A stretch of DNA of 64,000 nucleotides from Halarcobacter sp. GTDB lineage: Bacteria > Campylobacterota > Campylobacteria > Campylobacterales > Arcobacteraceae. The stretch spans positions 1,664,001 to 1,728,000 of the forward strand of contig CP182352.1 of NCBI GenBank assembly GCA_048571215.1, written 5' to 3'. The translations under genes and the position numbers were made by a program. How positions within the stretch are numbered: position 1 is the stretch's first letter; each line of letters starts with the position of its first letter. Below the pieces are notes generated by a model. It had not been told where the DNA came from. It ran no database searches and saw only the letters and a list, made by a program, of their open reading frames with translations. This document shows positions 40,591-57,787 of the stretch, one piece after another.

Positions 40591-40690
40591 GAAACAATAA
40601 ATAAACACTCGGCTTCTCAAATGTGGGAAAGTGGGAAATTGACCTTTGCATTTTTTGATACCATTTTATTTGAATTGGTGTAATACTCAA
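40591..40690 (+). repeat. Structured repeat copy A (partial)
   Basis: aataaacactcggcttctcaaatgtgggaaagtggg...ggtgtaatactcaa. Confidence 0.85.
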
Positions 40691-40726
40691 TTTATACAAA
40701 GAAAGTTTGCAGCTAGTGTATTTAGT

Positions 40727-40887
40727 CCAGACTTTGTTGAAGCCGAAAGTTTTCTAATTATTTTCGGAGAAGACCGAGGACCGTTCAACTGGATAAAAGG
40801 TACTGAATGTACCTTTTAGGAAGGCGTTCCGCAGGTCAGGAAATAATTATAAAACTGTAGGGAACTTTAGCTTCAACAACCGTCTGG
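40727..40887. repeat. Palindromic element of about 160 bp
   Basis: ccagac-tttgttgaagc ... gcttcaacaa-ccgtctgg ends; inner aaaaggtac-tgaat-gtacctttt hairpin. Confidence 0.65.
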
Positions 40888-41107
40888 TTGCTTTTTGTCT
40901 TACTTTTTACAACTAAAAAGTGAGAAAGCGAAGAACTTGTTCTTTAAGACAATTGCATACAATAAAAACTATTATCAAAATATTTGAGTATAAATAAACT
41001 TTTACTATACGTCTTAATTTCTATCGACTTTCTTTTGTGAAAAAGAAAGTAGCAAAGAAGTTGCCACCTTAAAAAATGATAAAATATAAAATATTTAAAT
41101 CTAATAT

Positions 41108-42091
41108 TTATGATATACTTTTAAATTTATTAGGGTCATATATATTATTATTTTTATATAATGAGTGAGCAATTACAATCATTTTTCGCATTACAGCAAT
41201 TTGTGCTACAGTAGTATGTTTGCCATTCTCTTTTAATCTATTATAAAATATTTTTAATTCTTCATTGTATTGTATCGCTGTCATTACTGCCATAAATAAT
41301 GTACCCCTACATAATTTTGAACCAGATTTTGATATTTTTGTTTTTCCTTTTATTGATGAACCAGAATCTCTACTAACTGGATCTAATCCAGCTAATGAAA
41401 CAATTTGCTTTTGATTTGTATCAGGATATTGTATAAAATGGTGTAATAATATAATTGAAGATAATTCTCCTATGCCTTTTATAGTTTGGATATTTAAAAA
41501 TGCATTATGTAAATTTTTGTCTTTTGCAATAACTTTTTTTATCTCAATAAGAATATCTTTTTCTTTTTTTTCAAATGATTTTATATCTTTTCTTAATGAT
41601 TTAATTATAATAGATGAAGCATCTTTTGAAACTAAAGCTTCCAAATGATTTTTATTTTGAGTTTTAATTTTTGATATAAATTTATAATATGTAATAAGCT
41701 CTTTTAATTCCTCGGCATAAGGATTAATAATGGGTATTTTAATCTGATTTTTTCTTGCAGTAACTATCATCTGAGATAACATTCTAGCATCTAAAAGGTC
41801 AGTTTTATTTCTTTGACCAATTGCTTTAGCAAAGTTAGCACTTTTCTTTGGATTAACAATAAAACAGTGTATACTTTTTTCAGAACAAAACTTTTTAATT
41901 AAAAAGGAATAATTAGCTGTAGGTTCAAAAACAAATACAAGTTTATCTATATCTTTTTTATAAAGTTTTTTTAACTTAGAATAAAAACCTTTAAGTGATT
42001 TCAAATTATTTGATATTTGAATATCTAAATCATTGATAGGGATATAAATATTAATTGTTGACTTACTTATATCTAATCCGATAGAATACAT
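41108..42091 (-). CDS. IS110-family recombinase/transposase
   Basis: IGLDISK, FEPTANY, KTDLLDA, IKGIG, AGLDP..RDSGSS, AVMRKM. Confidence 0.93.
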   Translation of the reverse strand: MYSIGLDISKSTINIYIPINDLDIQISNNLKSLKGFYSKLKKLYKKDIDKLVFVFEPTANYSFLIKKFCSEKSIHCFIVNPKKSANFAKAIGQRNKTDLLDARMLSQMIVTARKNQIKIPIINPYAEELKELITYYKFISKIKTQNKNHLEALVSKDASSIIIKSLRKDIKSFEKKEKDILIEIKKVIAKDKNLHNAFLNIQTIKGIGELSSIILLHHFIQYPDTNQKQIVSLAGLDPVSRDSGSSIKGKTKISKSGSKLCRGTLFMAVMTAIQYNEELKIFYNRLKENGKHTTVAQIAVMRKMIVIAHSLYKNNNIYDPNKFKSIS

Positions 42092-42109
42092 ATCTAGAAC
42101 CTTTGTATT

Positions 42110-42325
42110 AATATAAAGAGTTCGTTAGGGTAGGAATAAAATTCCTACCTGATATTTCGTCATACAAACTTTAGACTCGTAAATACGAACTAGTTATAAA
42201 ACTGTTCTTGTTGCCACTCAAATTTGAAGTATAACTATTGAACTTCTTTACAAGCTAATTAAAATTATTTTTAATTGCTTCAACCACCCACACAATATAT
42301 CATCTTCTATTGAACTCTATGAAAA
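42110..42325 (-). ncRNA. Putative IS110 bridge RNA
   Basis: Two hairpin-centred loops with GGGTGGTT/GTAAAGAA (target-like) and GTGGCAAC/TACGA (donor-like) segments; TATAAT at the element end; boundaries approximate. Confidence 0.65.
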
Positions 42326-42664
42326 TATACTATCATATTTCCAATATTTTATTATACGAACCATCCCACAGGTTTCGAAGGTGAAACTACTCTCGCTTAT
42401 TATTCATCCCTTTTGAGTGCCTAAAAACTTGCTAAAACGTTCTCCCAGAACGTTTCTTTAGGCTTCAAACAGTTTAGTCACTTGTTTTCAAAAGAGATAA
42501 ATAAACACTCGGCTTCTCAAATGTGGGAAAGTGGGATAAGGACCTTTGCATTTTTTATACCATTTTATTTAAGCTGGTGTGATACTCAATAATTATTATA
42601 AAATGTGGAGATTCAACTTCTGGGGTGTTACTTTAGAAGTATCTATTTTTAATAGAAAGATGTA

Positions 42665-42703
42665 AAAGAGAAAAAGAGGAATCAAACTTTCCTTTTCTCT
42701 TTT
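42665..42703 (-). terminator. Terminator-like hairpin
   Basis: aaaagagaaaa ... ttttctctttt downstream of the haem-binding gene. Confidence 0.45.
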
Positions 42704-42736
42704 TTATAATAATTAAATAAATTGTTTCAAAACTTA

Positions 42737-43186
42737 TCAATCATTATCATGTTCTTCTTCACTACCAAATGTTTTTTCTAAGCCTAAAATAAGTTGTTGA
42801 GTTTCAGCTTGAGTAAGTTTAGCTTCAGGATGTGTTGGAAGATAATAAAAAGGTGGCATATCTCCTCCTTTTACTTCTTCTGCAGCTTCATCGCCTTTAT
42901 TTCTTTTTTGTGCACCCCACATAGAAACATTAAAATGTTCTCTACCCTCTTCAACGTCAAATGCAACCAACCAAGAGATAGGTGCAACTTTACTATACCA
43001 TGGATAAGTTGTCTTATTTGAGTGGCAATTAGCACAAGCTTTATCAAATAATACTTTTGTCTGCATTGAATCCCATTGAGGCTCCTTTACTACTGGTGGA
43101 TTTGTATAATCCTTTCCATAAGGAATAAATTGAATTAAGACAGCTACAACAGCTATACCTAAAATAATCTTACCTTTACTCATCAT
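42737..43186 (-). CDS. Haem-binding domain (cytochrome c-type) protein
   Basis: CANCH, YPWYS.VAP.SW, MPP..Y..H. Confidence 0.8.
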   Translation of the reverse strand: MMSKGKIILGIAVVAVLIQFIPYGKDYTNPPVVKEPQWDSMQTKVLFDKACANCHSNKTTYPWYSKVAPISWLVAFDVEEGREHFNVSMWGAQKRNKGDEAAEEVKGGDMPPFYYLPTHPEAKLTQAETQQLILGLEKTFGSEEEHDND

Positions 43187-43330
43187 TCTTCTCCTAAATT
43201 AATAATTTAGACCGATTTTAAACTATTATTATGAATTCAACATGAATATAAAATGAATATTCTATATTAAAAAATATAGGGACATGGTACTCAATCAACT
43301 ATTTAGTCAATTTAATAAGATAGTAGATAA

Positions 43331-43800
43331 TTAATTTAAAGTATTTTTTTTAATTCCCCACTTGAACTTATCTTTATACCACCCATATACATCTGAAATA
43401 GTCACTGAATTTGCTTTTCCCGAACTTGCATGAATAAACTTTCCATTTCCTAGGTATATTCCACTATGATTTACCTCACCTTTTAGACTTGTATCAAAGA
43501 ATACTAAATCTCCTTTTTCAAGTTCTTCAAGAGCAGTTTTTTCTCCTACTTGTGATTGAGATAAAGAGGTTCGGGGTAAGATTATTTTATTTTCTTTGTA
43601 AATATAATAAACAAAGCCAGAGCAGTCAAAACTATCTGGACTTTAGCGTATATATAAGGGTTCCCAAGTTTAGATTTTGCGAGTTTAATTATGTTTTTAG
43701 TAGATATATTATCTTTTACTATCTCTTTATTTTTATTTAAAGGGTCTGCAAATAAATATAAGGAAAAGATAGTAAAAATTGTTAGAAGATACCGTACCAT
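43331..43800 (-). pseudogene. Frameshifted NlpC/P60 peptidase
   Basis: LGNPYIYAK, frameshift near 43641, then PDSFDCSGFV..LPRTS..GDLVFF..NHSGIYLG..FIHASS. Confidence 0.8.
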
Positions 43801-44066
43801 GTTGCTCCAATAAATAAAATAAATACCTGTATCAATGCAAGTAAACTTGATAAAGTAACTCCTAACCAAATAACAATATTCTTACCGTATTTTTTGATAT
43901 GAAAGTTTCCATAGATTATACTTAATGTTAAAAATATAATAACAATCAATGCCATCAATATAAAATTGACTTGAATATTATCAATCCACTCACTTTTCCA
44001 ATTAAAGAATATCACTCCGCTTAGAAAAGCCATTGTAAAAGGTATAAATTCTGAATTTTTTTTCAT
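43782..44066 (-). CDS. Cassette gene: three-TM hypothetical protein
   Basis: ATG just after attC core GTTAAAA; stop lies within TTCTAAC. Confidence 0.6.
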   Translation of the reverse strand: MKKNSEFIPFTMAFLSGVIFFNWKSEWIDNIQVNFILMALIVIIFLTLSIIYGNFHIKKYGKNIVIWLGVTLSSLLALIQVFILFIGATWYGIF

Positions 44067-44072
44067 CTTCTC

Positions 44073-44206
44073 TTTTAACGGCAATCTTGAGGGACAAGTG
44101 AACTAACGGTATAAATATTCAAATTTTACGGTATCTAAATACAACACATAAAAATTTAATATTTCGGCAGTTTTTACTTGTTCTCCTCTCCTAGTATTTG
44201 TTAGAC
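44073..44206 (-). other. attC
   Basis: GTCTAAC-aaata-ctaggagaggagaacaagt ... acttgtccctcaag-attgcc-GTTAAAA; R'' complements GTTAGAC at 47223. Confidence 0.75.
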
Positions 44207-44231
44207 TATTGCCAACTAAATAATGCTTTAT

Positions 44232-47207
44232 TTACTCAACTACTCCAGTACCAAAAGATGTTCCATCTGTCATGATTTTAGCTTGATTTTCTCCATATCC
44301 CATACTCATGTCAAGAAGTATTTTATTATCTAACAAAATCTTATTTATATACAGTTCATCATAAGCATATTTTAAAGTTGGAAATTCTTTTAATAATGTT
44401 GTCCCTTCTGTAGTACCATCACTTATCCATAATTGAATGTAAGTCTCATAGTTGCTAGAAGACGATAAATTTGTGATTTCTGCGACTATTAAAATTTTAC
44501 CATTCAACTCAAAAATACTTTTAATACCTGCCACATTAGTATCATCAATATTAGGTATTTTTTTAACTTCTGTTATAGTTGTTGGATTTATTTTCCATAA
44601 TGCCCCATTTATAACCTTATAGCTTATATTATTAACCGTTAAACTATTACCAAAATATGAATCACTTGAGCCAACTTTCAAATCTTCTACCATAACTGTA
44701 CCAGCTTCAGTTCCATCACTTTTCCATAATTCTTTACCATGTACACCATCATCTGCATCAAAAAACACAGTACCATTAACATCAATTAAGTTTCTTGGAT
44801 AACTCCAATTTGTTCCAACTCTAATATCTTTAATTATACTTGTACCTGCTTCTGTTCCATCACTCTTCCATAATTCTCCACCGTTAGCGCTATCATTATT
44901 ATAAAAAAATAAAATTCCATCACTCATAATTAAATCTTGAGGGGAAGAACCATAATCAGTAAGAGGTATTGTGCCTACTTCAGTACCATCACTTTTCCAT
45001 AATCTAGTTTTGTTATTTCCTTCGTTACCTGCAAAATAAAAAATATTATTATCAGCAACAGTAAAGTTATATAAATACGCAAAGTTATCTTTTATTTTTA
45101 CTGTTCCATTTTCAGTACCATCACTTTTCCAAAGGGAATCTATGCCATTATTGTCTTCAATTGTAAAATATAGAGTTCCATTAACATTGGTTAAATTAGT
45201 AGGGTTTGATGAATTTGCACCAATAACTATATCTTTTACTATCACTGTACCAGATTCAGTTCCATCACTTTTCCATAACTCTTTACCATGCTCTACATCT
45301 AAAGCTGTAAAATAGTATGTATTATTAATCTTAGTTAAACTGCTAACTGATGAACTTGCTATTTTTGTATTTATGTCTTTTAGTATCTTTGTGCCATTTT
45401 CTGTTCCATCACTTATCCATAGTTCAGCTCCATGATTATTATCACTCATAGTATAAATAAATTTTTCTCCCAATATTACACCAGATTCCGAAGTCCAAGA
45501 ATTCGATTCTGAAAGTATATTCGTTTTTAAAGGAGTGAGCGTTTCACTTGTAGTATTAAAGATTGATAATGTTTGATTACCCGTATTCTTATCCATTTGA
45601 GCTATATATAAAATATTATCTATTGGTGATTTTGAGATTGATGTATAATCTGATAAATCTAATAATTTTGTTGTATTATTAACTGTGCCATCAGTTTTCC
45701 ATATACTATCATTTGGCCATACATTATTATGTAAATATACAGTTTGATTATCTTCACTAAAGAAATCAAATGTATTAGATACTTCACCTGATGTTCTTGT
45801 TATTAATTTGATAGTTCCTACTTCAGTACCATCACTAATCCAAACATTTCCTCTTTGATAAAAATATACATTTTCTCCAAAAATTGAAAAAGCACCTGGA
45901 TCATAATCACTATTATATGTATAAAGAGTATTAATCTTTATAGTACCAATGTCTGTACCATCACTTACCCATAAATTTGTTTCTGTGTTGATAGCCGTCA
46001 TAAATATCTTAGTTGCTGTTGCAGCAAGTGTATTGATATATTCTCCTAAGTCTTTTACTAAAATAGTACCACTTCCTGTACCATCACTTTCCCATAATTC
46101 TTTGCCTATAGAAAAATAAAGTTTATTATTAAAGGTTGTGATTTTAGAAAAATAACTTGGTAAATCTTTCACCAAAACAGTACCATTTTCAGTTCCGTCA
46201 CTTTTCCATAAATCACCAGAATTATTATCATCATACAACCTAAAATAAGCAACTCCATTTAGATTTGTAATAGCTTCAATAGAAACATTGGAAGAACCAG
46301 TTCTTGTAAACTCCTTAATGAATGTTGTTCCATTTTCTGTTCCATCACTTTTCCAAATACTACCATATCCGTTTGAAGTATTGCTATCATATCTATTTTG
46401 AGTAAAATAGAGTACTCCCCCTATATCAGTTAATCTTCCACAACTACCTGTTTTTAGTAATATAGTTCCATTTTCTGTTCCATCTGTCCTCCATAGTCCA
46501 CTTCCATTATTATCTGAAGCCGTAAAATAAGTGTAACTACCAACTGTTATGAAATTTGATGGAGATGATGATTGTGTTGCTGTATTTATTTTTTTAACAA
46601 CTGTTGTATCTATTCCGTTAGTACTTATTAATTCTCCATCTCTTGAGACAGTAATATTTTTTTGTGATGATAAGTCAAAAGTATTTTTCAAATGTTCTAT
46701 AGCTTTATATTTGAAAACTGGTTCTTTATTTGAAGCTTTTATTATTGCATCTAGTTTTGTTGTATTTATATCTTTTAAATTTAATGATTCAACAAACATT
46801 CCATGAATAGAACTGTCAATGTTTATTTCATTCGTAATATTTCCATCATCATCTAATGATTGTAATAATATAGCTAATTTTGCTGTGTATTCATCATCAA
46901 AGTTTGTTCTATCTACATTTGCTATATCCTGTAAGTAAATATTTTTATCATTTGTAAAGCCATCTATGCTGCCAATTATTAAATTACCTATCTTAAACGT
47001 AATAGTTGCACCACTTTCACATTCAAACTTTCCATTTGCTTGTGTAGTTCCATTGATGTCTCCACACTCATAATTTATACCAACTACGGGTGAATCAATT
47101 AAATACCCTGTTACTAATTGTGAAGATGAAGTGCTACTTCCACCACCGCAACCATTTAAAAATACTATGAAAAGTATTAAAACTATTATTGAAATTTTGT
47201 TTTTCAT
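44232..47207 (-). CDS. ELWxxDGT-repeat lipoprotein (cassette gene)
   Basis: Lipobox LNGC, many (E)LWKSDGTxxGT repeats. Confidence 0.85.
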   Translation of the reverse strand: MKNKISIIVLILFIVFLNGCGGGSSTSSSQLVTGYLIDSPVVGINYECGDINGTTQANGKFECESGATITFKIGNLIIGSIDGFTNDKNIYLQDIANVDRTNFDDEYTAKLAILLQSLDDDGNITNEINIDSSIHGMFVESLNLKDINTTKLDAIIKASNKEPVFKYKAIEHLKNTFDLSSQKNITVSRDGELISTNGIDTTVVKKINTATQSSSPSNFITVGSYTYFTASDNNGSGLWRTDGTENGTILLKTGSCGRLTDIGGVLYFTQNRYDSNTSNGYGSIWKSDGTENGTTFIKEFTRTGSSNVSIEAITNLNGVAYFRLYDDNNSGDLWKSDGTENGTVLVKDLPSYFSKITTFNNKLYFSIGKELWESDGTGSGTILVKDLGEYINTLAATATKIFMTAINTETNLWVSDGTDIGTIKINTLYTYNSDYDPGAFSIFGENVYFYQRGNVWISDGTEVGTIKLITRTSGEVSNTFDFFSEDNQTVYLHNNVWPNDSIWKTDGTVNNTTKLLDLSDYTSISKSPIDNILYIAQMDKNTGNQTLSIFNTTSETLTPLKTNILSESNSWTSESGVILGEKFIYTMSDNNHGAELWISDGTENGTKILKDINTKIASSSVSSLTKINNTYYFTALDVEHGKELWKSDGTESGTVIVKDIVIGANSSNPTNLTNVNGTLYFTIEDNNGIDSLWKSDGTENGTVKIKDNFAYLYNFTVADNNIFYFAGNEGNNKTRLWKSDGTEVGTIPLTDYGSSPQDLIMSDGILFFYNNDSANGGELWKSDGTEAGTSIIKDIRVGTNWSYPRNLIDVNGTVFFDADDGVHGKELWKSDGTEAGTVMVEDLKVGSSDSYFGNSLTVNNISYKVINGALWKINPTTITEVKKIPNIDDTNVAGIKSIFELNGKILIVAEITNLSSSSNYETYIQLWISDGTTEGTTLLKEFPTLKYAYDELYINKILLDNKILLDMSMGYGENQAKIMTDGTSFGTGVVE

Positions 47208-47222
47208 GTCTGTCCTTCGTAT

Positions 47223-47260
47223 GTCTAACTATTTGTTAGTACTACATTATATATAAATAA
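47223..47260 (-). other. attI-like simple site with adjacent TATAAT
   Basis: Minus strand tataatgtagta-CTAAC-aaata-GTTAGAC; identity with the 56186 copy stops at the core. Confidence 0.75.
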
Positions 47261-47640
47261 TATATAAAATCACCTAATAGCACTACATTTTTTATGATAA
47301 GATACTAAATTGCTATAAAGCCCTTAAATAAGCTATTTTTAATATTATTTAAATAATATATTACAATATATAATATTTTTTAAACCTAAATTGTATATTT
47401 GATATAATTTTTAATATTAGACTATTAACGTATATCTGTAATAGCTTATCAAAATGTTATGCTATTGATTAAAAATCGTAATAGTTTAACAAAATGCTAA
47501 ATATATCAGGAGTAAAAAATGGATAAGAAACTACTAGATATTATGAGTGATAAATTCTAAATATTCACTTTTTTATTGAAAAAAGTAAAACAAAAAGCAA
47601 CCCGCGGGTTTCGAAGGCAGAAGCTTCCCTCGCTTATTAT
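47225..47640 (+). repeat. Near-identical duplicate of 56188-56603 (attI, promoter region, IntI stub, repeat start)
   Basis: Constant offset of 8963 bp, few substitutions. Confidence 0.9.
47519..47560 (+). pseudogene. IntI stub MDKKLLDIMSDKF*
   Basis: AGGAG RBS, divergent from attI, fused to repeat C. Confidence 0.65.
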
Positions 47641-47893
47641 TTATCCCTTTTGAATGCCTAAAAACTTGCTCTTGTGCTTGCACTCTCTGTGAGAAAACGT
47701 GAATTAGTCACGTTTCTTTACGCTTCAAACAGTTTAGTCACTTGTTTTCAAAAGAGACAAATAAACACTCAGCTTCTCAAATGCGGGAAGGTGGGATAAT
47801 GACCTTTGCATTTTTTGATACCATTTTATTTTAGTTGGTGTGATACTCAATAATAATTATAAAAGTGGAGATTCATCCTCTAGGGTGTTATTT
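47555..47893 (+). repeat. Structured repeat copy C
   Basis: Shared conserved blocks, ends gggtgttattt. Confidence 0.9.
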
Positions 47894-47894
47894 T

Positions 47895-47922
47895 AATATT
47901 TCTCTCCAATGATTTGTTAGAC
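47895..47922 (-). other. Truncated attC (left arm only)
   Basis: GTCTAAC-aaatcattggagagaaatat then the repeat end; R'' complements GTTAGAC at 48404. Confidence 0.75.
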
Positions 47923-47940
47923 TTATTAATACTTGAAGAG

Positions 47941-48381
47941 TCAACTCCAAGATTGAATTTCTATAATATTTCCTTCTATATCTCGTAAATATGTAAATTT
48001 TAACAGTCCAACACCTTCAACTTCATTTTCAATAACTTCACCTAATGTTGTTGCTCCATTTTTTAAAGCTTTTGTTAGTATTTCATCTACATTATCCACT
48101 TCAAATGCAATATGTGTAAAACCAATTTGATTAGCCATAATTGGATTTGTATCTATAAACTTTTCATAACTAAATATTTCTAATGTTGGAGGGTTGTCAT
48201 ATCCAGGCAAGGATAAATGAACACCCATTTGTCTAGCATTTTTAATTCCTATAGCTTTATCTAACCATTCACCCTTTAAATCTCTTTCAGGTGGTTTAAT
48301 TTTGCATTCAAAAACTTTAATATAAAAATCTGCTAATGCTTTCCAATCTCTTGCTGCTATGTTTGTATGTGCAAATCTCAT
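47941..48381 (-). CDS. VOC/glyoxalase family cassette gene
   Basis: FAHTNI, GFTHIAFEVD, YLRDIEGNIIE. Confidence 0.85.
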   Translation of the reverse strand: MRFAHTNIAARDWKALADFYIKVFECKIKPPERDLKGEWLDKAIGIKNARQMGVHLSLPGYDNPPTLEIFSYEKFIDTNPIMANQIGFTHIAFEVDNVDEILTKALKNGATTLGEVIENEVEGVGLLKFTYLRDIEGNIIEIQSWS

Positions 48382-48403
48382 TTATTATTTTCCTTTTACT
48401 TTA

Positions 48404-48474
48404 GTCTAACGTTTAAGTTGAGAAATAGTTTTGCCCGCTAGGGTAAACTATTTCTCTCCAAGGTTTTATTATAA
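48404..48474 (-). other. attC (71 bp)
   Basis: TTATAAT-aaaaccttggagagaaatagttt ... aaactatttctcaacttaaac-GTTAGAC. Confidence 0.85.
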
Positions 48475-48476
48475 TC

Positions 48477-48809
48477 TTACTTTATACCCCTAATCATTTT
48501 ATCTTCATCAATTTCATCCTGAATATCTTCTGTAATTTCTCTATTATAATAATTACTAATTGTATTAGCTTGATCAACAATCATGTCAATTTTTTCTTCA
48601 TATTTTTCTGTATTTAAATCTTCGATTTTAAAATTTAAAAAATCAGAACATAAATCACTTTCTAGACCCAAGTGATCATCGTGAAATGCATATACATGTT
48701 CAGAGTTACCTCTTTTTACAATTTCTTGAACAGTATTGTATTCTTTTGGAGAATCCTCATCTTGATTTAAATCATTTATTACATCATGGATATTTTTTAA
48801 CTTCTTCAT
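48477..48809 (-). CDS. Cassette gene: acidic hypothetical protein
   Basis: ATG at 48809 after AAGGA; bounded by attCs. Confidence 0.65.
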   Translation of the reverse strand: MKKLKNIHDVINDLNQDEDSPKEYNTVQEIVKRGNSEHVYAFHDDHLGLESDLCSDFLNFKIEDLNTEKYEEKIDMIVDQANTISNYYNREITEDIQDEIDEDKMIRGIK

Positions 48810-48874
48810 ATATTGAATCCTTTTGTTGTTTATTTTATATATTTTAGCTAATTTTACTTGGTATTTAAATTTAA

Positions 48875-49009
48875 TTATAACGTTGGACTTGAAAAACAAG
48901 GAGGATGATAGCACTTGATTATTTCAGTTCTCATTTTAGCTATTTTGTTCTAAAAAGTTTATACTAACCGCAGTATACCCTTGTTTTTCTTTCCAATGTT
49001 TTGTTATAT
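48875..49009 (-). other. attC (135 bp)
   Basis: ATATAAC-aaaacattggaaagaaaaacaagg ... ccttgtttttcaagtccaac-GTTATAA. Confidence 0.85.
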
Positions 49010-49012
49010 ATT

Positions 49013-50410
49013 TTAAAAACCAAGATTGAAATCATCAATTAAATCAATGATTACATCAGATGGATCATCATTTTTATATTTTCTCAAAAGCATTTCTCTT
49101 AAATGCTCGTTGTTTAAAAAAATAATTAATTTGTTTTTTTCTATAAAAATATCTTTTCTTTTCTCAATGCCACTTTGATTTGGAAGTTTTTTACTACATA
49201 TGATTCCAAATCTACCAATTGTTTGCTTTAAATAATCATCAATTTGAAGCAATACAGATTTGTCAATTTCACTTCCATTTTTAGAATAGTTTTTAAACTC
49301 AAACACTATATATTTTGCATCATAGTCATCCCTAATAAATTTCCAATTTTCATTACTATTTCGATTGGGATATATAGCATCTCTTATATCAATACCAGAT
49401 TCCCTCCGTGATTGTATTTTAGGTTTGCCAAGTGGTGGTACAAATAAGTAATTTAAAATATCTACACAAATATCTTCATATATTTTCCAACCTTCTTTTC
49501 CTTCTGGACATTCATCTAATCTTTTGATTAATTTTTGTATATTTTCTAACTCTTTATCAATTAATTTAATTTTTTGTTTTTTTGTAAAAGTTTTTTTATT
49601 GAAATATTCTTTTATTAAATGAGGGTGTGAAAAAAGTTTTTGAATTAGTTTATGTCTATCCCATATAATAATATTGGAGGTATTTTGCACTAAAAAATCA
49701 TGAGAACTTTTAGTAATTTCAGAATTTGTAATAAGTAAAATATTATTAGCTTTTTCGATAGTTGAAATTCCAATTAATTTCCTTAATACTTCAATTGATA
49801 TTTTCTGATTTTTATAAAACCTAGCTTCAACTATTGTTTTTTCCTCAATACCTAGTATATTTTTTGTCTTGGTTATAAAATCATACCCACCATCTTTTGT
49901 GGGTGGAGTTCTTTTTACTTCAAAATTTTCTGATAAAAGAAGATCATACACTAAATTTTCAAACTTTCTCCCATCAAAACTTGACCAATCTTGTAATTCA
50001 TAATCTACATTACCAGTTTGTAGTAATGCCTTTTTTAGAATATCTAAACCAATTTCTTTATTTTTTGAAAAATCAGCATATAAGTAATTAGATAAATCAT
50101 ATGGGATTGTTGAATTGTCAATTTTAATTGGTAGAATTTTAATGCCTCTATTACTGGCATTTTGTAATAAAGCAGAATTTAGTTCGTATTGCATCCATTT
50201 TGAAGTTAAAGAAGAATTACTTAACACAAAAATAAACGCATTGCTAGATTCAATACCAGATACAATTTTATCTTGAATACTATCACCGAGTTGAATCTCT
50301 TTTTGATCATACCAAATATCATAATTAGTATCTTGTAAATTTGCATTAAGCCATTCAACAAATTCTTTATCTTCATGTGAATAACTAATAAAAACTTGTT
50401 TCTTCATCAC
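49013..50410 (-). CDS. TIR domain + Mrr-like + second restriction-endonuclease-like domain (probable defence cassette)
   Basis: VFISYSHED, SKWMQYEL; FENLV..DGGYDF..VEARFY; RDAIY..FEFKNY. Confidence 0.75.
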   Translation of the reverse strand: MMKKQVFISYSHEDKEFVEWLNANLQDTNYDIWYDQKEIQLGDSIQDKIVSGIESSNAFIFVLSNSSLTSKWMQYELNSALLQNASNRGIKILPIKIDNSTIPYDLSNYLYADFSKNKEIGLDILKKALLQTGNVDYELQDWSSFDGRKFENLVYDLLLSENFEVKRTPPTKDGGYDFITKTKNILGIEEKTIVEARFYKNQKISIEVLRKLIGISTIEKANNILLITNSEITKSSHDFLVQNTSNIIIWDRHKLIQKLFSHPHLIKEYFNKKTFTKKQKIKLIDKELENIQKLIKRLDECPEGKEGWKIYEDICVDILNYLFVPPLGKPKIQSRRESGIDIRDAIYPNRNSNENWKFIRDDYDAKYIVFEFKNYSKNGSEIDKSVLLQIDDYLKQTIGRFGIICSKKLPNQSGIEKRKDIFIEKNKLIIFLNNEHLREMLLRKYKNDDPSDVIIDLIDDFNLGF

Positions 50411-50423
50411 TTTCCTTATCTAT

Positions 50424-50460
50424 ATATAACTATTTATTGAATATACATTATATAAATAAA
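50424..50460 (-). other. attI-like site (core GTTATAT)
   Basis: Core complements ATATAAC at the end of the same cassette (49003-49009). Confidence 0.7.
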
Positions 50461-50705
50461 GTACTTAAATCCACTACTTTATTATATATTTAGTAGAAAA
50501 GCTTATTTCATGCATCTTTATAGAGGAATATTACAAAATACAATATTTTTTCTATATATTTTTATTATAAGTTATAATTTTTATATATATTTAATGTCGA
50601 TATTTGGAACTTTTATATATATAATGTATGTTAAAAGTGAAAATTTAACTTTAAATAACATTTTGATTATTTAACAAAATGATAAATATATTATGTGTAT
50701 TTGGA

Positions 50706-51069
50706 TAATACTATTATCAAAATATTTGAGTGTAAACTAACTTTTGCTGTACGTCTTAACTTATTCCGACTTTCTTTTATAAAAAAGAAAGTAGCAAAGA
50801 AATTATCCCGCAGGTTTCGAAAGTGAAACTTCCCTCGCTTATTATTTCACTTTTCTGTTTTTCAAAACTCGCTAAAACGTAAGTTAGTTACGTTTCTTTA
50901 CGCTCTAACAGTTGAAAAACTTTTCCGAAAAGCAAAATAAACACTCGGCTTCTCAAATGCGGGAAAGTGGGATAAGGACCTTTGCATTTTTTTATACCAT
51001 TTTATTTTAATTGGTGTGATACTCAACAATTATTATAAAAGTGGAGATTCATTCTCTGGGGTGTTATTT
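50706..51069 (+). repeat. Structured repeat copy D
   Basis: Conserved blocks; uninterrupted IS110 target site near 50790-50815. Confidence 0.9.
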
Positions 51070-51276
51070 TAAAGCAACTATAAACAAATGTATAGATGGA
51101 ACATGAAACTATTATCGATGATTATACTACTAAAATGAATACAAAAAAAGCAAGAGATATAGTTAGAAAAAGAGCTTCAATTGTAGAGCATCCATTTTGC
51201 AAGTGTGAATTCCATTTCACTTCATGGTACAATAAAAAGAACTTTAGGTTGGGATCATTTTTTAGTAAGAGGAAAA
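51070..51276 (+). pseudogene. IS1182-like transposase C-terminal fragment with a 28-bp insert
   Basis: RKRASIVEHPF [51198-51225] GTIKRTLGWDHFLVRGK. Confidence 0.7.
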
Positions 51277-51481
51277 CAAAAGGCAAGCATACAACAGCTG
51301 TTCAAATTGCACTTATGCGAAAAATGATAATTATTGCACATTCTTTATATAAAAATGACATACAATATGACAAAGATTTTTATAAAAAAAGTTGTGGATT
51401 TCAAGAGTAGAAAACTACTCTTGATTTAAGAAATTGATTTAATTAAAATTTATAAATTTCAAGTTTTTTTAAGGTGGCGAC
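51277..51481 (+). mobile_element. IS110 3' remnant with element end
   Basis: GKHTTAVQIALMRKMIIIAHSLYKN matches the C-terminus of 41108..42091; ends tttttaaggtggcgac. Confidence 0.8.
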
Positions 51482-51495
51482 TGTTCCCTTATTTT

Positions 51496-53208
51496 TTATT
51501 TTCTTATTTTTGATATTGCCTTGATAACACTGCATTTAGTATTATTTTTAATCCATTCCGCCTTACTTGCCCAAAGTGCTTGACATACTCCATATATTTG
51601 TAAGTTTTCATTTTGTATATCGTCACTTTTCTTTTTTATCTTTTTTAAAAAATTAAACTTGTCCTGGATACGCTTTTTACATATCTTTGAATAAGGAACA
51701 CCTTCACATACGTTTTGTGCTTTTTTTTCTATCAGAGTTTCGGCCTTATTTCTTAATTCTTTTATCTCCTTTGGAAATAACTTTAAATCTTCAAATTGTC
51801 TAATATAAGTCATTATACTTATATTTAAATTCATTTCATGTGCTTTTTGTGCAGTATCTAATCCCATGCTAGAAAGTTCATAAGATGTATAATTTGGATA
51901 CATGGATGTGTAGTCATATTTTGCTGCACAAAATTGATTATTTATAGGGTTCTTAGGTATTAGAATTGAGTTTGATATAAGACCATTTTTTGAATTTTCT
52001 TTTGAATTTTCTTTAGTGCTTTCTAATGTTCTAATCTCATTTGGATAATCGGTAATTGAACCAACGTTTATTTCAATGATTTTTTTCTCTTTAGTACTAT
52101 CATTAACTTTAATTTCTACGGTTCTATTATCATCAACATAGCCTAAATGTGTATGTGCGGAAATGTATCCCAACGCATATTGACTTTTGAATATTTGTTT
52201 AAACTGATCCAATAATTTTGGTTCAAATTCACTTAATGGATGATGTCCAAAAACAATAAAATATTGTTTATTAATCTCTAAATTTTTTACCCATTTTTTA
52301 ATCTCATCCATTTGATCAACTGTTATACCTGCCGTCATTCCTGGATTACGATTTTTTCCATAATGTCGTTTTGAACTTATTGCACCATAAAAATTTAATG
52401 GTTTATTCTTATAATTTGCAGTATCTATTACAATACCCTTGAGGGAACCTTGTTCTGTTTCTTTAGATAAATTGATACGTTGAAGTATAAATGATTTATA
52501 ATTATCTTCTTCTGCTTTAAACCTCTTAACATATATTTTGTCAATTAAAGCATTAAAGCTTTTCTCTTCATTTATATTTTTATCTTTATATTTATCTGAA
52601 TTAAGTATAAATTCTAAATACTTATTTATAAATTTTCCTTTTGTCATTCTTGATGATAAATATTCACTCTTTGATACATTCTTCTCATCATAAATAGATT
52701 TATCATAACAAGATTTTCCCCACTGTAGTTTTATATTATTCGTATAACCAGCAGTTGTACCGAACCAAAAAAAGTCATGATTGCCAGGAGCCATAACAAA
52801 TTTATCTTTGTTTTCGGCAAGTAAATCACTAAAGGTTTTCCATTCATTTTCACAAGCAATATTTAGTGCATCCCCTAAATGAATGATATTTTTTTTCTTA
52901 GCATCTTCTTGTTTTAAAACCCATTTAAATAAATATTCAGAATATATATCAAGCTGAGGAGGTCTAATAGCTACGCTTGATGGTATCTCTGCATATTGAT
53001 TCCTCATTATTGATGGATCTGTAAAGATATTACTAAATTGGTTATCTCCTATCAAAAGAACATCATGTTTTAGATCAAAGCTAGTAAAACCAAGGGTTTG
53101 CTTTGAAACAACATTCCGGTTTTTATAGTTTATATCTAATGCTTTTGGAGCACATCCTGTATAAAATACTATAGCTATAATTAAAGTGATATATTTTTTT
53201 CGTTGCAT
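51496..53208 (-). CDS. Metallophosphoesterase lipoprotein (first gene after attI)
   Basis: Lipobox YTGC; GDNQ, HLGD, PGNHD, GHHP, AHTH. Confidence 0.8.
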   Translation of the reverse strand: MQRKKYITLIIAIVFYTGCAPKALDINYKNRNVVSKQTLGFTSFDLKHDVLLIGDNQFSNIFTDPSIMRNQYAEIPSSVAIRPPQLDIYSEYLFKWVLKQEDAKKKNIIHLGDALNIACENEWKTFSDLLAENKDKFVMAPGNHDFFWFGTTAGYTNNIKLQWGKSCYDKSIYDEKNVSKSEYLSSRMTKGKFINKYLEFILNSDKYKDKNINEEKSFNALIDKIYVKRFKAEEDNYKSFILQRINLSKETEQGSLKGIVIDTANYKNKPLNFYGAISSKRHYGKNRNPGMTAGITVDQMDEIKKWVKNLEINKQYFIVFGHHPLSEFEPKLLDQFKQIFKSQYALGYISAHTHLGYVDDNRTVEIKVNDSTKEKKIIEINVGSITDYPNEIRTLESTKENSKENSKNGLISNSILIPKNPINNQFCAAKYDYTSMYPNYTSYELSSMGLDTAQKAHEMNLNISIMTYIRQFEDLKLFPKEIKELRNKAETLIEKKAQNVCEGVPYSKICKKRIQDKFNFLKKIKKKSDDIQNENLQIYGVCQALWASKAEWIKNNTKCSVIKAISKIRK

Positions 53209-53225
53209 TTTTTTCTCCTATAAAT

Positions 53226-53260
53226 ACTTAACTATTTAATAATAATACATTATATATATT
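53226..53260 (-). other. attI-like site (core GTTAAGT)
   Basis: Plus strand acttaactatttaataataatacattatata. Confidence 0.65.
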
Positions 53261-53466
53261 TATTGCTTAATTATCTCAACTACTAGATATTTACATAAAA
53301 TATCCTTAAAATAGGTATTCAATGAAAGTTTATTACAAAATGTAATATTTTTGAATTGATTTTTTATTTTTAATTATAATTAAAATATATATTTTTTGTC
53401 TAAATAACTGTAATAACAATACACTATGTATGTTAATTGGAAAAAAACATAATAATACTGATACAA

Positions 53467-53508
53467 ATGACTAAAAAATTACTTGATATTATGAGGAATA
53501 AATTCTAA
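53467..53508 (+). pseudogene. IntI stub MTKKLLDIMRNKF*
   Basis: Divergent from the 53226 attI, fused to repeat E. Confidence 0.6.
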
Positions 53509-53853
53509 ATATTCACTTTTTGCCTGCAAGCAGGATTACATATTGAAAAAAGTAAAATAAAAATAACCCGCGGGTTTCGAAGATGAAACTTCCCTCGTTT
53601 ATTATTTATTGTTTCTGTTTCGTCTTGTGCTTGCACTCTCTTTGAGAAAACTCACATAAAAATATGCTCCTAGCATATTTGTTCTGTTCAAACAGTTACA
53701 AAACTTCTCCGAAACAATAAATAAACACATGGCTTCTCAAATGCGGAAAAGTGGGATAATGACCTTTACTTTTTTAAGTATCATTTTATTTTAGTTGGTG
53801 TAATACTCAACAATTATTATAAAAGTGGAGATTCATTCTCTGGGGTGTTATTT
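53503..53853 (+). repeat. Structured repeat copy E
   Basis: Conserved blocks, two mini-inserts. Confidence 0.9.
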
Positions 53854-53886
53854 TTTTCTATATATTTTTATAGTTTAGGAGATATT

Positions 53887-53928
53887 ATGGGTAAAAAACT
53901 ACTTGATATAATAAAGGATAAATTTTAA
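53887..53928 (+). pseudogene. IntI stub MGKKLLDIIKDKF*
   Basis: AGGAG RBS, fused to repeat F. Confidence 0.6.
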
Positions 53929-54153
53929 ATATTCACTTTTTTGCCTGCAAGCAGGATTAGATATTGAAAAAAGTAAAATAAAACCATCCCACAGGTTTCG
54001 AAGATAAAACTTCCCTCGCTTATTATTTATTGCTTCTCAAATGCGGGAAAGTGGGATAATGACCTTTGCATTTTTTGATACCATTTTATTTTAGTTGGTG
54101 TGATACTCAATAATTATTATAAAAGTGGAGATTCATCCTCTGGAGTGTTATTT
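53923..54153 (+). repeat. Structured repeat copy F (inner arm deleted)
   Basis: tatttattg joined directly to cttctcaaatgcggg. Confidence 0.9.
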
Positions 54154-54173
54154 AGTTTTAACAAAATATAATA

Positions 54174-54680
54174 TTAGGATTTATTAATTTTAGATTTAAC
54201 TTTATTAATAAATTCTTCAACATTACCTTCAAGTATATTTCTACATTTTGGAACAATATGTGCACCTCCCAAAGTATTACTTACTAAGATAAAATAATGT
54301 TTTTTTGACTCTACTACTTTAGTTATTGCTGATAAATCATATATAGTTTCATTAACATCTGTCAATTCTTTAAATTTATCTCCATCAATAATTAAAGTAT
54401 GTTCACAAAGTATTCCTTCACCTTTATATAATAAAGCAATAATTCCAGATAAAATAAAACTGATTATAGCCATTACCAATATAAATACTACAATTTGAGA
54501 TAAAATTGAACCTATAATAAATATACTTGAATATCCATCATTAAGCATTTTTAAAAATGACCATACTAAAAAAATAATTAAAACAAAAATTATAGATATC
54601 ATAATGGATTTAATCATAAATATTGACCTAATTTGATAATTAAATAAATCTTTTCGTGTATTTATGTATTTTATTTTCAT
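54174..54680 (-). CDS. YcxB-like membrane protein
   Basis: Two TM helices, GILCEHTL, AHIVPK. Confidence 0.6.
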   Translation of the reverse strand: MKIKYINTRKDLFNYQIRSIFMIKSIMISIIFVLIIFLVWSFLKMLNDGYSSIFIIGSILSQIVVFILVMAIISFILSGIIALLYKGEGILCEHTLIIDGDKFKELTDVNETIYDLSAITKVVESKKHYFILVSNTLGGAHIVPKCRNILEGNVEEFINKVKSKINKS

Positions 54681-54883
54681 TTAAATATTCCTTTATAAAA
54701 GATTTTACTATGATTGCTTATTAATGCATAAAACTTTAATACTAAGTTACCATATAATTATTATCATTATTTTAGTACTTTTAATCTTAATAGATATTAA
54801 ATTAGGACTAAATAGATTTATAATATGTCTTTAGAGTATTAGGTTTAAATGAATTAGTATCTAAAATACCACAAAACTATTAG

Positions 54884-54900
54884 TTTTTAAGGTGGCAACT
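54884..54900 (+). mobile_element. Isolated IS110 end
   Basis: tttttaaggtggcaact, identical to the end of the full IS110. Confidence 0.6.
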
Positions 54901-54914
54901 GACCCATATTTTCT

Positions 54915-54991
54915 TTTAGTTGGTGTGATACTCAATAATTATTATAAAAGTGGAGATTCAACCTCAGGGGTGTTATTTAGGGGTGTTATTT
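54915..54991 (+). repeat. Structured repeat copy G (terminal part, last 13 bp tandemly duplicated)
   Basis: aggggtgttattt occurs twice. Confidence 0.85.
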
Positions 54992-55001
54992 TCAAGGTTC
55001 T

Positions 55002-55682
55002 TTAAAGTTTAATTGCTTTTGTAATAGCAAAATTATACATTCTCCAATAACAAGCACTTTGTTGAAACCCAACTTCTTTTAACCAATCAAAATGATTTGA
55101 TAAAATAATTGGAAAATCTTTTTCAATATGTTTTTCATACCAAAACTCTGGGTTTTCACCTTGCTCTTTCATAAACTGTTTCCAAAGAGAATATTGATGT
55201 TCTCTAACCTCTTTATCTTCATCTATGATAATATCATTTGAGATATAAACTGCATTTTGATTTGCACTATTAAAAAGTTTTTGATAAAAAACTTTTCTCT
55301 CTTCCCAATTTAGATGATGTAGTGTCATACCTGTTAAAATTATATCGTATGATTTTCCAATTGAATCTATTTTATAATCCCCTTGGATCAATTCATAGTT
55401 TTTTGTATATTTTGATATTTTTTGTTCATAAGCTTTTAGCATTTCAGTAGTAATATCAAATCCAGTGATATGTGAATTTGGAAGTTTCTTTAAAACAATT
55501 TCAGACAATATACCATTACCACAACCTAAATCCAATACTTTATAATTTTTACTTTTATTGTTTGGTAATAAATCAAATATGATTTTATGTTGTTCTAAAT
55601 ATTGTGGAACCAATCTTATCATCAATGCTTCATAATCAGAAGCTTGTTGTGCAAAATGTTCTTGTATATTTATATCTTTCAT
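55002..55682 (-). CDS. Class I SAM-dependent methyltransferase (cassette gene)
   Basis: VLDLGCGNG, TLHHL; ATG just after attC core GTTAGAG. Confidence 0.85.
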   Translation of the reverse strand: MKDINIQEHFAQQASDYEALMIRLVPQYLEQHKIIFDLLPNNKSKNYKVLDLGCGNGILSEIVLKKLPNSHITGFDITTEMLKAYEQKISKYTKNYELIQGDYKIDSIGKSYDIILTGMTLHHLNWEERKVFYQKLFNSANQNAVYISNDIIIDEDKEVREHQYSLWKQFMKEQGENPEFWYEKHIEKDFPIILSNHFDWLKEVGFQQSACYWRMYNFAITKAIKL

Positions 55683-55688
55683 TTTATC

Positions 55689-55744
55689 CTCTAACGCCTC
55701 AATCAGCCGATGCATTAGCGGTCGGCTGAATTGATTTGTTAGCG
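55689..55744 (-). other. Short GC-rich attC (56 bp)
   Basis: CGCTAAC-aaatcaattcagccga-ccgctaatgca-tcggctgattgaggc-GTTAGAG. Confidence 0.9.
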
Positions 55745-56172
55745 CATGTAGCTTTAGTAACGAATTCAAAACCAAATACAACACAAAAAGACATCAGCAA
55801 CCAAACAAGCCATTTAAAGAAATTTTGCACCAAGACAACGTGAATTGGATTTCCAACCACATAATCCATAATTGGCTGCCTAAAAAACGCACCATGGATA
55901 GCCATAAGCAAGACAGAAAATACTAAGGCCGCTTTAAATTTACCAAAACCAATTAGCTTATTGCGGGCAAGATAATATAGTGCTATTGCAGCTATCCCGT
56001 ATTCCAGAGAAGTAACTCCAGCAATATAGCGAACATCCCAAGACGGCTGAATTGATAGCCCCTGCATCTGACTACTAATCCAAGAGGGAAGCCATTCTAC
56101 GGTTGCTACATGAACAATGAAACTAGTTGCAGAGGCAACTACAGCAACGATAAAAATAAGAAAAAATTTCAT
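55699..56172 (-). CDS. Cassette gene: four-TM hypothetical protein reading into its attC
   Basis: AGGAG RBS; C-terminus ANKSIQPTANASAD is attC-encoded. Confidence 0.75.
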   Translation of the reverse strand: MKFFLIFIVAVVASATSFIVHVATVEWLPSWISSQMQGLSIQPSWDVRYIAGVTSLEYGIAAIALYYLARNKLIGFGKFKAALVFSVLLMAIHGAFFRQPIMDYVVGNPIHVVLVQNFFKWLVWLLMSFCVVFGFEFVTKATCANKSIQPTANASAD

Positions 56173-56185
56173 AACTCTCCTTGCG

Positions 56186-56223
56186 TGCTAACTATTTATT
56201 AGTACTATATTATATATAAATAA
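56186..56223 (-). other. attI-like site (core GTTAGCA)
   Basis: Duplicate of the 47223 site; GTTAGC complements GCTAAC of the cassette's attC. Confidence 0.75.
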
Positions 56224-56481
56224 TATATAAATTCACCTAATAGCACTACATTTTTTATGATAAGATACTAAATTGCTATAAAGCCCTTAAATAAGCTATT
56301 TTTAGTATTATTTAAATAATATATTACAATATGTAATATTTTATAAACCTAAATTGTATATTTGATATAATTTTTAATGTTAGACTATTAACGTATATCC
56401 GTAATAGCTTATCAAAATGTTATGCTATTGATTAAAAATCGTAATAGTTTAACAAAATGCTAAATATATCAGGAGTAAAAA

Positions 56482-56523
56482 ATGGATAAGAAACTACTAG
56501 ATATTATGAGTGATAAATTCTAA
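56482..56523 (+). pseudogene. IntI stub MDKKLLDIMSDKF*
   Basis: Identical to the 47519 stub. Confidence 0.65.
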
Positions 56524-56812
56524 ATATTCACTTTTTTATTGAAAAAAGTAAAACAAAAAGCAACCCGCGGGTTTCGAAGGCAGAAGCTCCCCTCGCTTAT
56601 TATTTATTGTTTCTGTTTTGTAAAACTCACATAAAAATATGCTCCTAGCATATTTGTTCTGTTCAAACAGTTACAAAACTTTTCCGAAACAATAAATAAG
56701 CACTCAGCTTCTCAAATGCGGGAAGGTGGGAAACTGACCTTTGCATTTTTTAGTACCATTTTATTTTAGTGGGTGTGATACTCAACAATTATTATAAAAG
56801 TGGAGACTCATT
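56518..56812 (+). repeat. Structured repeat copy H (terminus clipped)
   Basis: Conserved blocks up to gtggagactcattc. Confidence 0.9.
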
Positions 56813-57161
56813 CTTTATAGTTTATTTTTTTATAATAACCTGCATTCCTCAAATCATTTATTCTAAATATTAGTACATAATATAAAGATGGCATTACTGA
56901 TACTATATAAACTGCAAAAATTAAAAATAGATAAAAATTTGAGCTATTTATTAAAGTTCTATAAGTATTTATTAAATAAAAGAGAGGATAAATACTAATT
57001 AAACTATAAATAAGATATATAATAAAACCTAAAAAAGTAACAAAATTTTTTTTAAATTTTTTTATTTTTATTAAAAAGTATACATATATTTTAGATATTA
57101 TTAAAAGTAAAACACTTGATATAATTATAAATATAATTAACTCTAATATATTCTCTATCAT
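56808..57161 (-). CDS. Hypothetical membrane protein; stop supplied by repeat H
   Basis: Three TM segments, AGGTG RBS. Confidence 0.55.
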   Translation of the reverse strand: MIENILELIIFIIISSVLLLIISKIYVYFLIKIKKFKKNFVTFLGFIIYLIYSLISIYPLFYLINTYRTLINSSNFYLFLIFAVYIVSVMPSLYYVLIFRINDLRNAGYYKKINYKE

Positions 57162-57247
57162 TTTTCACCTTTGCATGGACAATAATATCAAAAATAATTA
57201 TATTAATAAATAAAGTGATGTTATAAATATTAGATTTTAATTTTAAT

Positions 57248-57325
57248 CAAGGCGAAGTGAAAATTTTAAGAGGAGCGTACATGCAAGTACATGAGTATTA
57301 AATTTTTTACTTCCAACAACGCGTC
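57248..57325. repeat. Short palindromic element with ggagcgtac..gtac core
   Basis: caaggcgaagtgaaaattttaa-gaggagcgtac-atgcaa-gtacatga..ttaaattttttacttc; related to 58741. Confidence 0.55.
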
Positions 57326-57787
57326 TGGTTGCTTTTTGCCTTACTTTTTAGAACATGTAATCCTGCTTGCAGGCAAAAAAGTGAGAAAACGGAAAGCCTC
57401 GCTCTACAAGACAACTGCATACAGTTAATACTATTATCAAAATATTTGAGTATAAATAAACTTTTGAAGTACGTCTTAACTCTTCTCGACTTTTTTTATG
57501 AAAAAAAAGTAGCAAAAAATCACCCGCGGAGTTTTGGAGGTGAAACTACCCTCGCTTATTATTTATTGTTTCTGTTTTGTAAAACTCACATAAAAATATG
57601 CTCCCAGCATATTTGTTCTGTTCAAACAGTTACAAAACTTCTCCAAAACAATAAATAAACACTCGGCTTCTCAAATGCGGGAAGGTGGGATTATGACCTT
57701 TGCATTTTTTTATACCATTTTATTTTAATTGGTATAATACTCAACAATTATTATAAAAGTGGAGATTCATCCTCTAGGGTATTATTT
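57314..57787 (+). repeat. Structured repeat copy I (long form)
   Basis: Colinear with the reassembled copy B. Confidence 0.9.

Follow-up and report, generated by a model that had tools for sequence, protein, structure and literature searches.

Repetitive extragenic palindromic (REP) sequences, bacterial interspersed mosaic elements (BIME) and REP doublets forming hairpins (REPIN) are intergenic, multicopy and palindromic, and they occur as inverted pairs and in alternating tandem arrays. Here, we analyzed a stretch of 64,000 nucleotides from Halarcobacter sp. (assembly GCA_048571215.1, contig CP182352.1; hereafter the window), positions 1664001-1728000 of a single-contig 3.61-Mb genome (G000). 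The window has a G+C content of about 27%, and its rpoA shares 99% identity with records of Arcobacter/Halarcobacter MAGs. It carries nine copies of a structured non-coding repeat, here named family P, whose convergent homologous partner element is named M. Like REP, BIME and REPIN, family P is intergenic, multicopy and palindromic, forms inverted pairs and tandem arrays, and, as PMC11208160 describes for REPs, is targeted by IS110 elements. It differs from them in being about ten times larger, branched and furnished with fixed internal loops, and the RAYT-like (REP-associated tyrosine transposase) gene of this genome is flanked by another repeat. On size, P was rejected as a REP or REPIN proper (palindromes of about 20-40 nt), since its units measure 165-280 nt and are branched, although inverted doublets are present. 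By analogy, P likely resembles a giant BIME or REPIN that is selfish rather than useful to its host.

The closest printed description of P and M is probably that of ffRNA-1 and ffRNA-2 in a supplement of Stav et al. (2019), compared here by description only. In the portions of that paper that treat them, these motifs were found in an Arcobacter sp. genome in many copies with no common gene neighbor, and a selfish nature was considered likely by the authors (Stav et al. 2019, BMC Microbiol, PMC6429828). The descriptive features agree with P (Arcobacter, multicopy, no common neighbor), whereas ffRNA-1 was reported from several phyla and the P model found nothing in 144 genomes from the rest of Campylobacterota; the ffRNA description in the main text and supplements of PMC6429828 mentions no link to integrons. 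A full-text literature search, in which papers on integrons and Arcobacter were judged by title and the start of the abstract, found nothing in print on P or its integron link.

The surroundings of P are comparable to integron remnants. In the parts of Cury et al. (2016, PMC4889954) concerned, attC-site clusters that have no integron integrase (CALIN) and In0 remnants share with the window attC cassette arrays without a nearby integrase and an IntI elsewhere in the genome; intI pseudogenes were near only 15 of 279 CALINs, and attI could not be searched in most integrons. Unlike those remnants, the window keeps an attI-like site, a leader and the first intI codons, tandemly repeated and each time headed by P. 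The attC sites themselves are, like P, imperfect palindromes whose structure is conserved rather than their sequence; arrayed between cassettes in a common orientation, they function as folded single strands. P is, in contrast, 2-4 times longer than attC, and its place is not behind cassettes but on that side of attI where the integrase lies. It was rejected as an attC site (R''-L''...L'-R', about 57-141 nt), since the RYYYAAC and GTTRRRY boxes are lacking, it is on the wrong side, and true attC sites stand separately in the window.

Fold and distribution of family P

An earlier note on this DNA, made from the sequence alone, had described nine copies of the repeat in one orientation, and repeat finding together with a nine-way alignment recovered all nine on the plus strand within 40.5-57.8 kb of the window. 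The alignment has 58 invariant columns and a mean identity of 61%. Copies B, C, D, E, H and I are full (B being split by an IS110 element), copy F is without the variable middle, and copies A and G are 3' pieces only. A 29-nt motif, mod3 (AAAGTGGAGATTCATCCTCWGGGGTGTTA), is terminal in seven of the nine copies (not A or H). The copies and the M elements among them have the following window coordinates:

40588-40691, plus strand: copy A, 3' part of P only (nhmmer model positions 162-265)
40727-40926, minus strand: M element (nhmmer); covariance-model match at 40727-40890, 63.8 bits, end to end
40963-41059, plus strand: copy B, 5' flank and 5' hairpin H0, by pairwise alignment to the copy I region; ended by the IS110 element
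41060-42357, minus strand: IS110-family element of 1298 bp, gene at 41108-42091 (Pfam PF01548, PF02371)
42358-42641, plus strand: remainder of copy B with mod3 tail (nine-way alignment, covariance model)
47562-47901, plus strand: copy C, with a 23-nt hairpin insert at 47671-47693
50757-51077, plus strand: copy D (nine-way alignment, covariance model)
53510-53861, plus strand: copy E, with a 22-nt insert in H0 and a 23-nt insert at 53624
53938-54161, plus strand: copy F, stems P2-P4 deleted; weak covariance-model match, 30.8 bits
54908-54980, plus strand: copy G, tail only, the last ~35 nt of P and then mod3
56525-56836, plus strand: copy H (nine-way alignment, covariance model)
57308-57428, minus strand: 5' fragment of M (nhmmer, 68 bits)
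57474-57795, plus strand: copy I, adjoining a 214-aa open reading frame (ORF) and guaB
42602-42630, 47862-47890, 51038-51066, 53822-53850, 54122-54150, 54947-54975 and 57756-57784: mod3, at the 3' end of seven copies

The core fold of P spans about 165 nt, and two further 5' hairpins and the tail extend the unit to about 280 nt. It comprises a closing stem P1, a side hairpin P1a that holds a near-invariant G.T pair, a long stem P2, a stem P3 and an apical hairpin P4 with P4b, and its internal loops AAAACTC and CAAACAGTT are fixed. All of the stems named in the earlier note are present, its outer arm corresponding to P2 and its inner arm to P3; the apical hairpins (P4) are of four types, as it had stated, and an alignment of 49 sequences shows no variation in the AAACTY and CAAACAG motifs. 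Its closing stem was correctly given for copies B (CCCACA/TGTGGG) and D (CCCGCA/TGCGGG), but most CCCAC copies of the same genome are mispaired, 9 of 10 retaining GCGG on the opposite arm with a resulting A.C mismatch. Among genera, this stem covaries as CCCGC/GCGGG, CCCAC/GTGGG, CCAAC/GTTGG and CTGCC/GGCAG.

The structure was set by hand on a seed of 22 sequences to give a covariance model, R1 (163 positions, 44 pairs), to which 76 matches were realigned, taken from the window, from 20 further copies in the same genome and from 29 loci in relatives. In this alignment, which is fitted to the structure and thereby biases the counts toward it, 90.4% of cells are pairing versus 71.3% in shuffles, both-sided changes are found at 39 of the 44 pairs, and the covariation score is 0.430 versus 0.134 in shuffles, none of 500 shuffles reaching 0.430. 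When the partners were slid by 1-3 columns, the score was 0.035-0.090. RNAalifold, which had been suggested as a check, returned a poor consensus of 19 pairs and -4.83 kcal/mol when given a plain MAFFT alignment, in which the three module types are not aligned correctly. Compared with shuffles, single P copies fold with z = -4.58 as RNA and -5.83 as DNA. The cross-genus covariation supports the earlier proposal that selection acts on a fold.

A first profile made from the window copies gave 61 genome matches, 31 of them above 190 bits, and the weaker opposite-strand matches lying directly downstream of many P copies are a second, homologous element, M, which R1 matches end to end on the opposite strand. 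Separate profiles yielded 38 P and 31 M matches, fragments included, in about 10 genome clusters. P and M are convergent and form units of about 600 bp, three of which stand in tandem at 1978.9-1980.7 kb of the genome. Across Arcobacteraceae, BLAST detected P in 66 of 184 genomes, spread over 15 of 22 genera, and it was absent from 144 sampled genomes of other Campylobacterota families searched with the covariance model under Infernal's stricter filters. In distant genera, convergent pairs were found in intergenic DNA at 13 of 18 loci, with varied neighbors. P is a real, strongly structured and family-restricted repeat. A search of the 64-kb window against Rfam gave no match at the gathering threshold and six at E <= 10, all far below threshold, and P/M, absent from Rfam, are among the most strongly covarying unassigned elements to be met in a bacterial genome.

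Integron platforms without an integrase

The window holds a chain of integrase-less attI platforms in which P takes the integrase position, a context that the earlier note had missed, as it had the partner M. The genome has one intact intI (895245-896189; 398 bits versus a cut-off of 265), whose product begins MGKKLLDIMKDK (also given as MGKKLLDIMKDKIRF). Tiny ORFs of the form M.KKLLDI(M/I)..KF, followed by a stop, precede copies C, E, F and H, and a shorter one, MGKKLLDK, precedes copy A; by their match to the N terminus of the real IntI, these five stubs are the first 8-12 codons of intI. The remains of the platforms, together with attC sites recognized by eye and motif rather than by a published model, are as follows:

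40555-40581, plus strand: intI stub MGKKLLDK and stop, fused directly to the 3' half of copy A
47227-47253, plus strand: attI-like site of the copy C platform, with cassettes to its left on the minus strand
47519-47560, plus strand: intI stub MDKKLLDIMSDKF and stop, with ribosome-binding site, before copy C
47893-47922, minus strand: half attC (R''-L'') belonging to the glyoxalase cassette and abutting copy C at its mod3 tail
48404-48475, minus strand: attC between cassettes, R' = GTTAGAC, read from the sequence
48875-49008, minus strand: attC after the TIR-Mrr cassette, R'' TATAAC and R' GTTATAA, read from the sequence
50428-50454, plus strand: attI-like site of the copy D platform, with homology to the real platform
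53230-53256, plus strand: attI-like site of the copy E platform, with homology to the real platform
53467-53508, plus strand: intI stub MTKKLLDIMRNKF and stop, before copy E
53887-53928, plus strand: intI stub MGKKLLDIIKDKF and stop, before copy F
56190-56216, plus strand: attI-like site of the copy H platform, with homology to the real platform
56482-56523, plus strand: intI stub MDKKLLDIMSDKF and stop, before copy H, identical to the stub of copy C

On the plus strand, a platform runs from the attI-like site through a leader of about 250-300 nt and the intI stub (five cases) to P. The real attI-to-intI stretch (about 330 nt) can be aligned to the sequences upstream of C, H, E and D with a mean identity of 65%, and the aligned part includes a AACTATTTATTGAA.ATACATTATATA box whose end coincides with the cassette boundary. 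Genome-wide, 11 of 19 attI-like matches (real site excluded) have a stub or a P copy within about 310 nt downstream. The genes between the copies are all minus-strand cassettes, some separated by attC sites, and encode diverse products, namely a protein with a heme-binding domain, a repeat protein of 991 aa, a glyoxalase, a TIR-Mrr protein, a metallophosphatase and a methyltransferase; two attC-type imperfect palindromes separate the three genes of the C-D interval. The window thus has the attC arrays without intI that define a CALIN, and not the intI beside attI of an integron platform, since nothing of intI was found in it beyond the stubs of 8-12 codons.

Relatives retain more of the integrase gene. 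In one of them (G090), the same guaB-adjacent locus consists of an attI-like site, a full-length intI broken over three frames, and guaB (L183, G090:C11:773559-778006, positions 163-1435), an arrangement that, judged by sequence, is likely the ancestral state of the window locus; another relative (G089) has a remnant matching IntI residues 4-35. Together, the stubs, the leader homology and the intI of the guaB locus in relatives suggest that P stands in the former place of intI, in the same orientation. The tiny ORFs were also considered as type I toxins or leader peptides, and this reading was dropped because they match the start of intI. They are the sole conserved small ORFs, leaving no candidate for a type I toxin-antitoxin system; by eye, a candidate ORF within P loses its start codon and frame between copies.

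P is found well beyond integrons. In genus g2, intI occurs in none of 44 genomes and P matches in 15 of them, so P does not depend on IntI and, by this distribution, would not be an integron part by origin. The attI-like motif lies upstream at 5 of 10 close loci versus 0 of 19 distant ones, where it may have diverged. The stub-P junction recurs at L084, L088 and L090, one other genus included, which suggests that the composite module spreads as a unit. Within the window, C and H share an attI-leader-stub-P 5' stretch that is 97-100% identical (47225-47644 and 56188-56607) and have inner P modules of different types, placing a crossover point inside P. P copies are mosaics: the 9 of 10 own-genome CCCAC copies mentioned above bear the 3' arm of another subfamily, and side-hairpin variants combine freely with inner types.

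Several features of the cassettes were noted in passing. The 991-aa ORF (44232-47207, minus strand) contains 13 repeats of about 43-48 aa around a WKSDGT-like motif and has no Pfam match. The fusion of TIR with an Mrr-type restriction endonuclease (49013-50410, minus strand) forms a cassette with its own attC and looks like a defense gene. A further attI-like box at 33711-33737 and attC-type motifs at 37963 and 39925 lie to the left of the repeats, so the cassette region reaches to at least about 33.7 kb.

Selfish DNA, RNA gene or integron part

With a probability of about one in two, we consider P, a rod-shaped element that Arcobacteraceae carry in multiple copies and that in this window takes the integrase position, to be a selfish repeat with a DNA-level fold whose copies, by crossing over with one another, have duplicated the platform modules. 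P would have displaced intI. One crossover joining a P-bearing circle to a resident P would insert a module with a direct repeat of P on either side, in keeping with the strictly shared orientation of all nine copies. Service to the orphan attI sites would come in trans from the single IntI.

The lean toward a DNA-level repeat over an RNA gene comes from rare wobble pairing, a nearly strand-symmetric fold and the targeting of P by IS110 elements, which REPs undergo as well. The near-invariant P1a pair is G.T in 71 of 74 cells; with that pair excluded, 35 of 3031 cells are G.T, 124 are A.C and 2698 are Watson-Crick, and the minus strand folds as well as or better than the plus strand in 5 of 6 window copies. 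This combination is uncommon among RNAs and agrees with a hairpin or cruciform of DNA, so that the odds favor, by a narrow lead, a fold acting as single-stranded or extruded DNA. Several points weigh against the selfish DNA repeat. The wobble count is confounded, many A.C cells falling at a few subfamily-specific P2 positions, and such counts are not decisive as a strand test. Large folds with covariation of this kind and fixed internal loops are usually RNAs, and a DNA element so large and complex is not known to us in multiple chromosomal copies. The P1a G.T pair looks like an RNA-type wobble and would favor the plus strand; a plus-strand transcript is plausible, P lying downstream of the conserved ribosome-binding site and start of intI, and a simple scan called a weak hairpin resembling a terminator within copy C's mod3 tail (47874-47887). 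The use of the orphan sites in trans is putative. The claim of mobility lacks its usual marks, as no transposase, target-site duplication or empty site was found for P: an empty-site search in the genus, with a lone M at 2043 kb and a P-M pair at 635 kb of the genome, gave no clean filled-versus-empty pair, the loci being variable, M being present in several relatives, and no target duplication being readable. As to a miniature inverted-repeat transposable element, the unit ends show, by eye, no clear inverted repeats, and no related transposase was found.

A possible, if doubtful, alternative is that P and M are genes for free-standing structured RNAs acting in trans, for example as partners of a protein encoded elsewhere, with P transcribed from the old intI promoter past a 13-codon stub and ending either in the mod3 hairpin or in the T-run that follows the closing stem. 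Strong covariation together with fixed loops, the near-invariant G.U in P1a, the RNA fold z of -4.58, the terminator-like hairpin in mod3, and the ribosome-binding site, ATG and TGnTAAAT-type -10-like box kept, from sequence, upstream of copies would all suit such an RNA, and the probably related ffRNA motifs were treated as RNAs in the relevant parts of Stav et al. (2019). However, G.U pairs outside the one in P1a (35 of 3031 cells) are fewer than A.C (124), and the minus strand folds at least equally well. Promoter-like sites are no commoner than chance (34 versus 29.1 +/- 5.0), and no matching protein partner was found among TnpB, reverse transcriptase and DDE_Tnp_1. The distribution is moreover patchy, with very variable copy number, and the inverted pairs, tandem arrays and mosaicism of the copies are what repeats typically show. 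It is unlikely that P is a working integron part whose folded single strand, as an accessory site, brings in IntI or host factors, or insulates adjacent platforms, allowing one integrase to serve many attI sites. The constant placement of P with respect to the attI-like site (11 of 19 sites), the stub-P junction in other genomes including another genus (L084, L088, L090), and the differing content of the cassettes that follow the orphan sites are in keeping with such a role, yet P and M are common without intI (0 of 44 genomes in g2, with P in 15 of 44), the attI-like site is found at 0 of 19 distant loci, allowing for divergence of the motif there, and attC-type R''/R' boxes are absent from the P sequence. 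Highly improbable is that no selection acts on the fold and that the compensation reflects three or four diverged imperfect-palindrome subfamilies spread by duplication and gene conversion. Variation in the own genome does lie mostly between three module types, and kinship inflates the shuffle tests, but other genera show independent pair types, up to 4-5 standard types per pair, and the slid-partner controls, which keep kinship, fall to 0.035-0.090; the cross-genus covariation largely refutes this explanation.

More speculatively, and with considerable doubt, the selfish repeat could be extended to a new class of large folded DNA, P/M, that replaces the integrase gene and multiplies its docking site, with about seven platforms in the window, one IntI acting in trans, and recombination between P copies that copies and shuffles platforms. 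Were this so, a single integron would become a distributed network of attI platforms served by one IntI. If the orphan attI sites work, gene capture by integrons in this genome would not be confined to one locus, which would alter the counting of cassette reservoirs among environmental Campylobacterota and would give a concrete origin to integrase-less arrays, a question left open in the pertinent sections of Cury et al. (2016, PMC4889954). Whether P/M acts as DNA or RNA is directly testable.

IS110, the RAYT-like gene and smaller repeats

The earlier note had also raised a non-autonomous HUH/REP-type element, for which a RAYT gene flanked by the repeat would be expected, and this part of its interpretation failed. 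The only Y1/RAYT-like gene of the genome (about 2560378-2560910) is flanked by a different, AAGGTGGCRACTGWCCCC-like (GGTGCCTGTCCCC-type) repeat, with neither P nor M within about 37 kb of this Y1_Tnp gene. The AAGGTGGCRACTGWCCCC-like repeat has 11 genome matches, is unrelated to P, and matches the sequence upstream of the gene (about 2560200-2560910), so that, on sequence, it is probably the REP of this enzyme. It occurs in the window at 51471-51488 and at 54889-54906, the latter directly preceding copy G. Partners of the TnpB/omega-RNA, retroelement and DDE transposon kinds were rejected as well, since no TnpB, reverse transcriptase or DDE_Tnp_1 match was found in the genome.

The IS110 element of the window is intact and, in copy B, separates H0 from stem P1. 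Each of the four genome copies of this IS110 type adjoins a P copy, and the cut in P is at the same point every time; IS110 elements are described, in the part of PMC11208160 concerned, as targeting repeats such as REPs. P was rejected as an IS110 bridge RNA: it is the insertion target and lies outside the insertion sequence, and most P copies have no IS110 nearby. A second IS110 type has three genome copies, two of them near P/M.

The mod3 motif has 27 genome copies, of which 12 are joined to a P tail and 15 lie in other contexts, and tandem GGGGTGTTAYTT units sometimes follow it on the 3' side, as in copy G. It was rejected as an attC or attI half-site because no convincing R boxes were seen and the cassette junctions are not at the GTT crossover point. 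Two small hairpin inserts, which may be miniature mobile hairpins, occupy different places within P and M and are present in relatives too. The 23-nt insert, CTTGTGCTTGCACTCTCTGTGAG, has nine genome copies, always directly 5' of AAAA (window 47671-47693 and 53624-53646), and the 22-nt insert, TTGCCTGCAAGCAGGATTACAT, has six in either orientation (window 53520-53541, 53941-53962 and, on the minus strand, 57376). Finally, an extra small covarying hairpin outside model R1 stands 5' of the P/M 5' hairpin in relatives (L096-L107) and in the window at 40891-40935 on the minus strand, with examples such as GAAGAAC-AAG-TTCTTC and GAAGAGG-TAAA-CCTCTCC, and its presence indicates that the P/M unit begins near CTCTTGAA.

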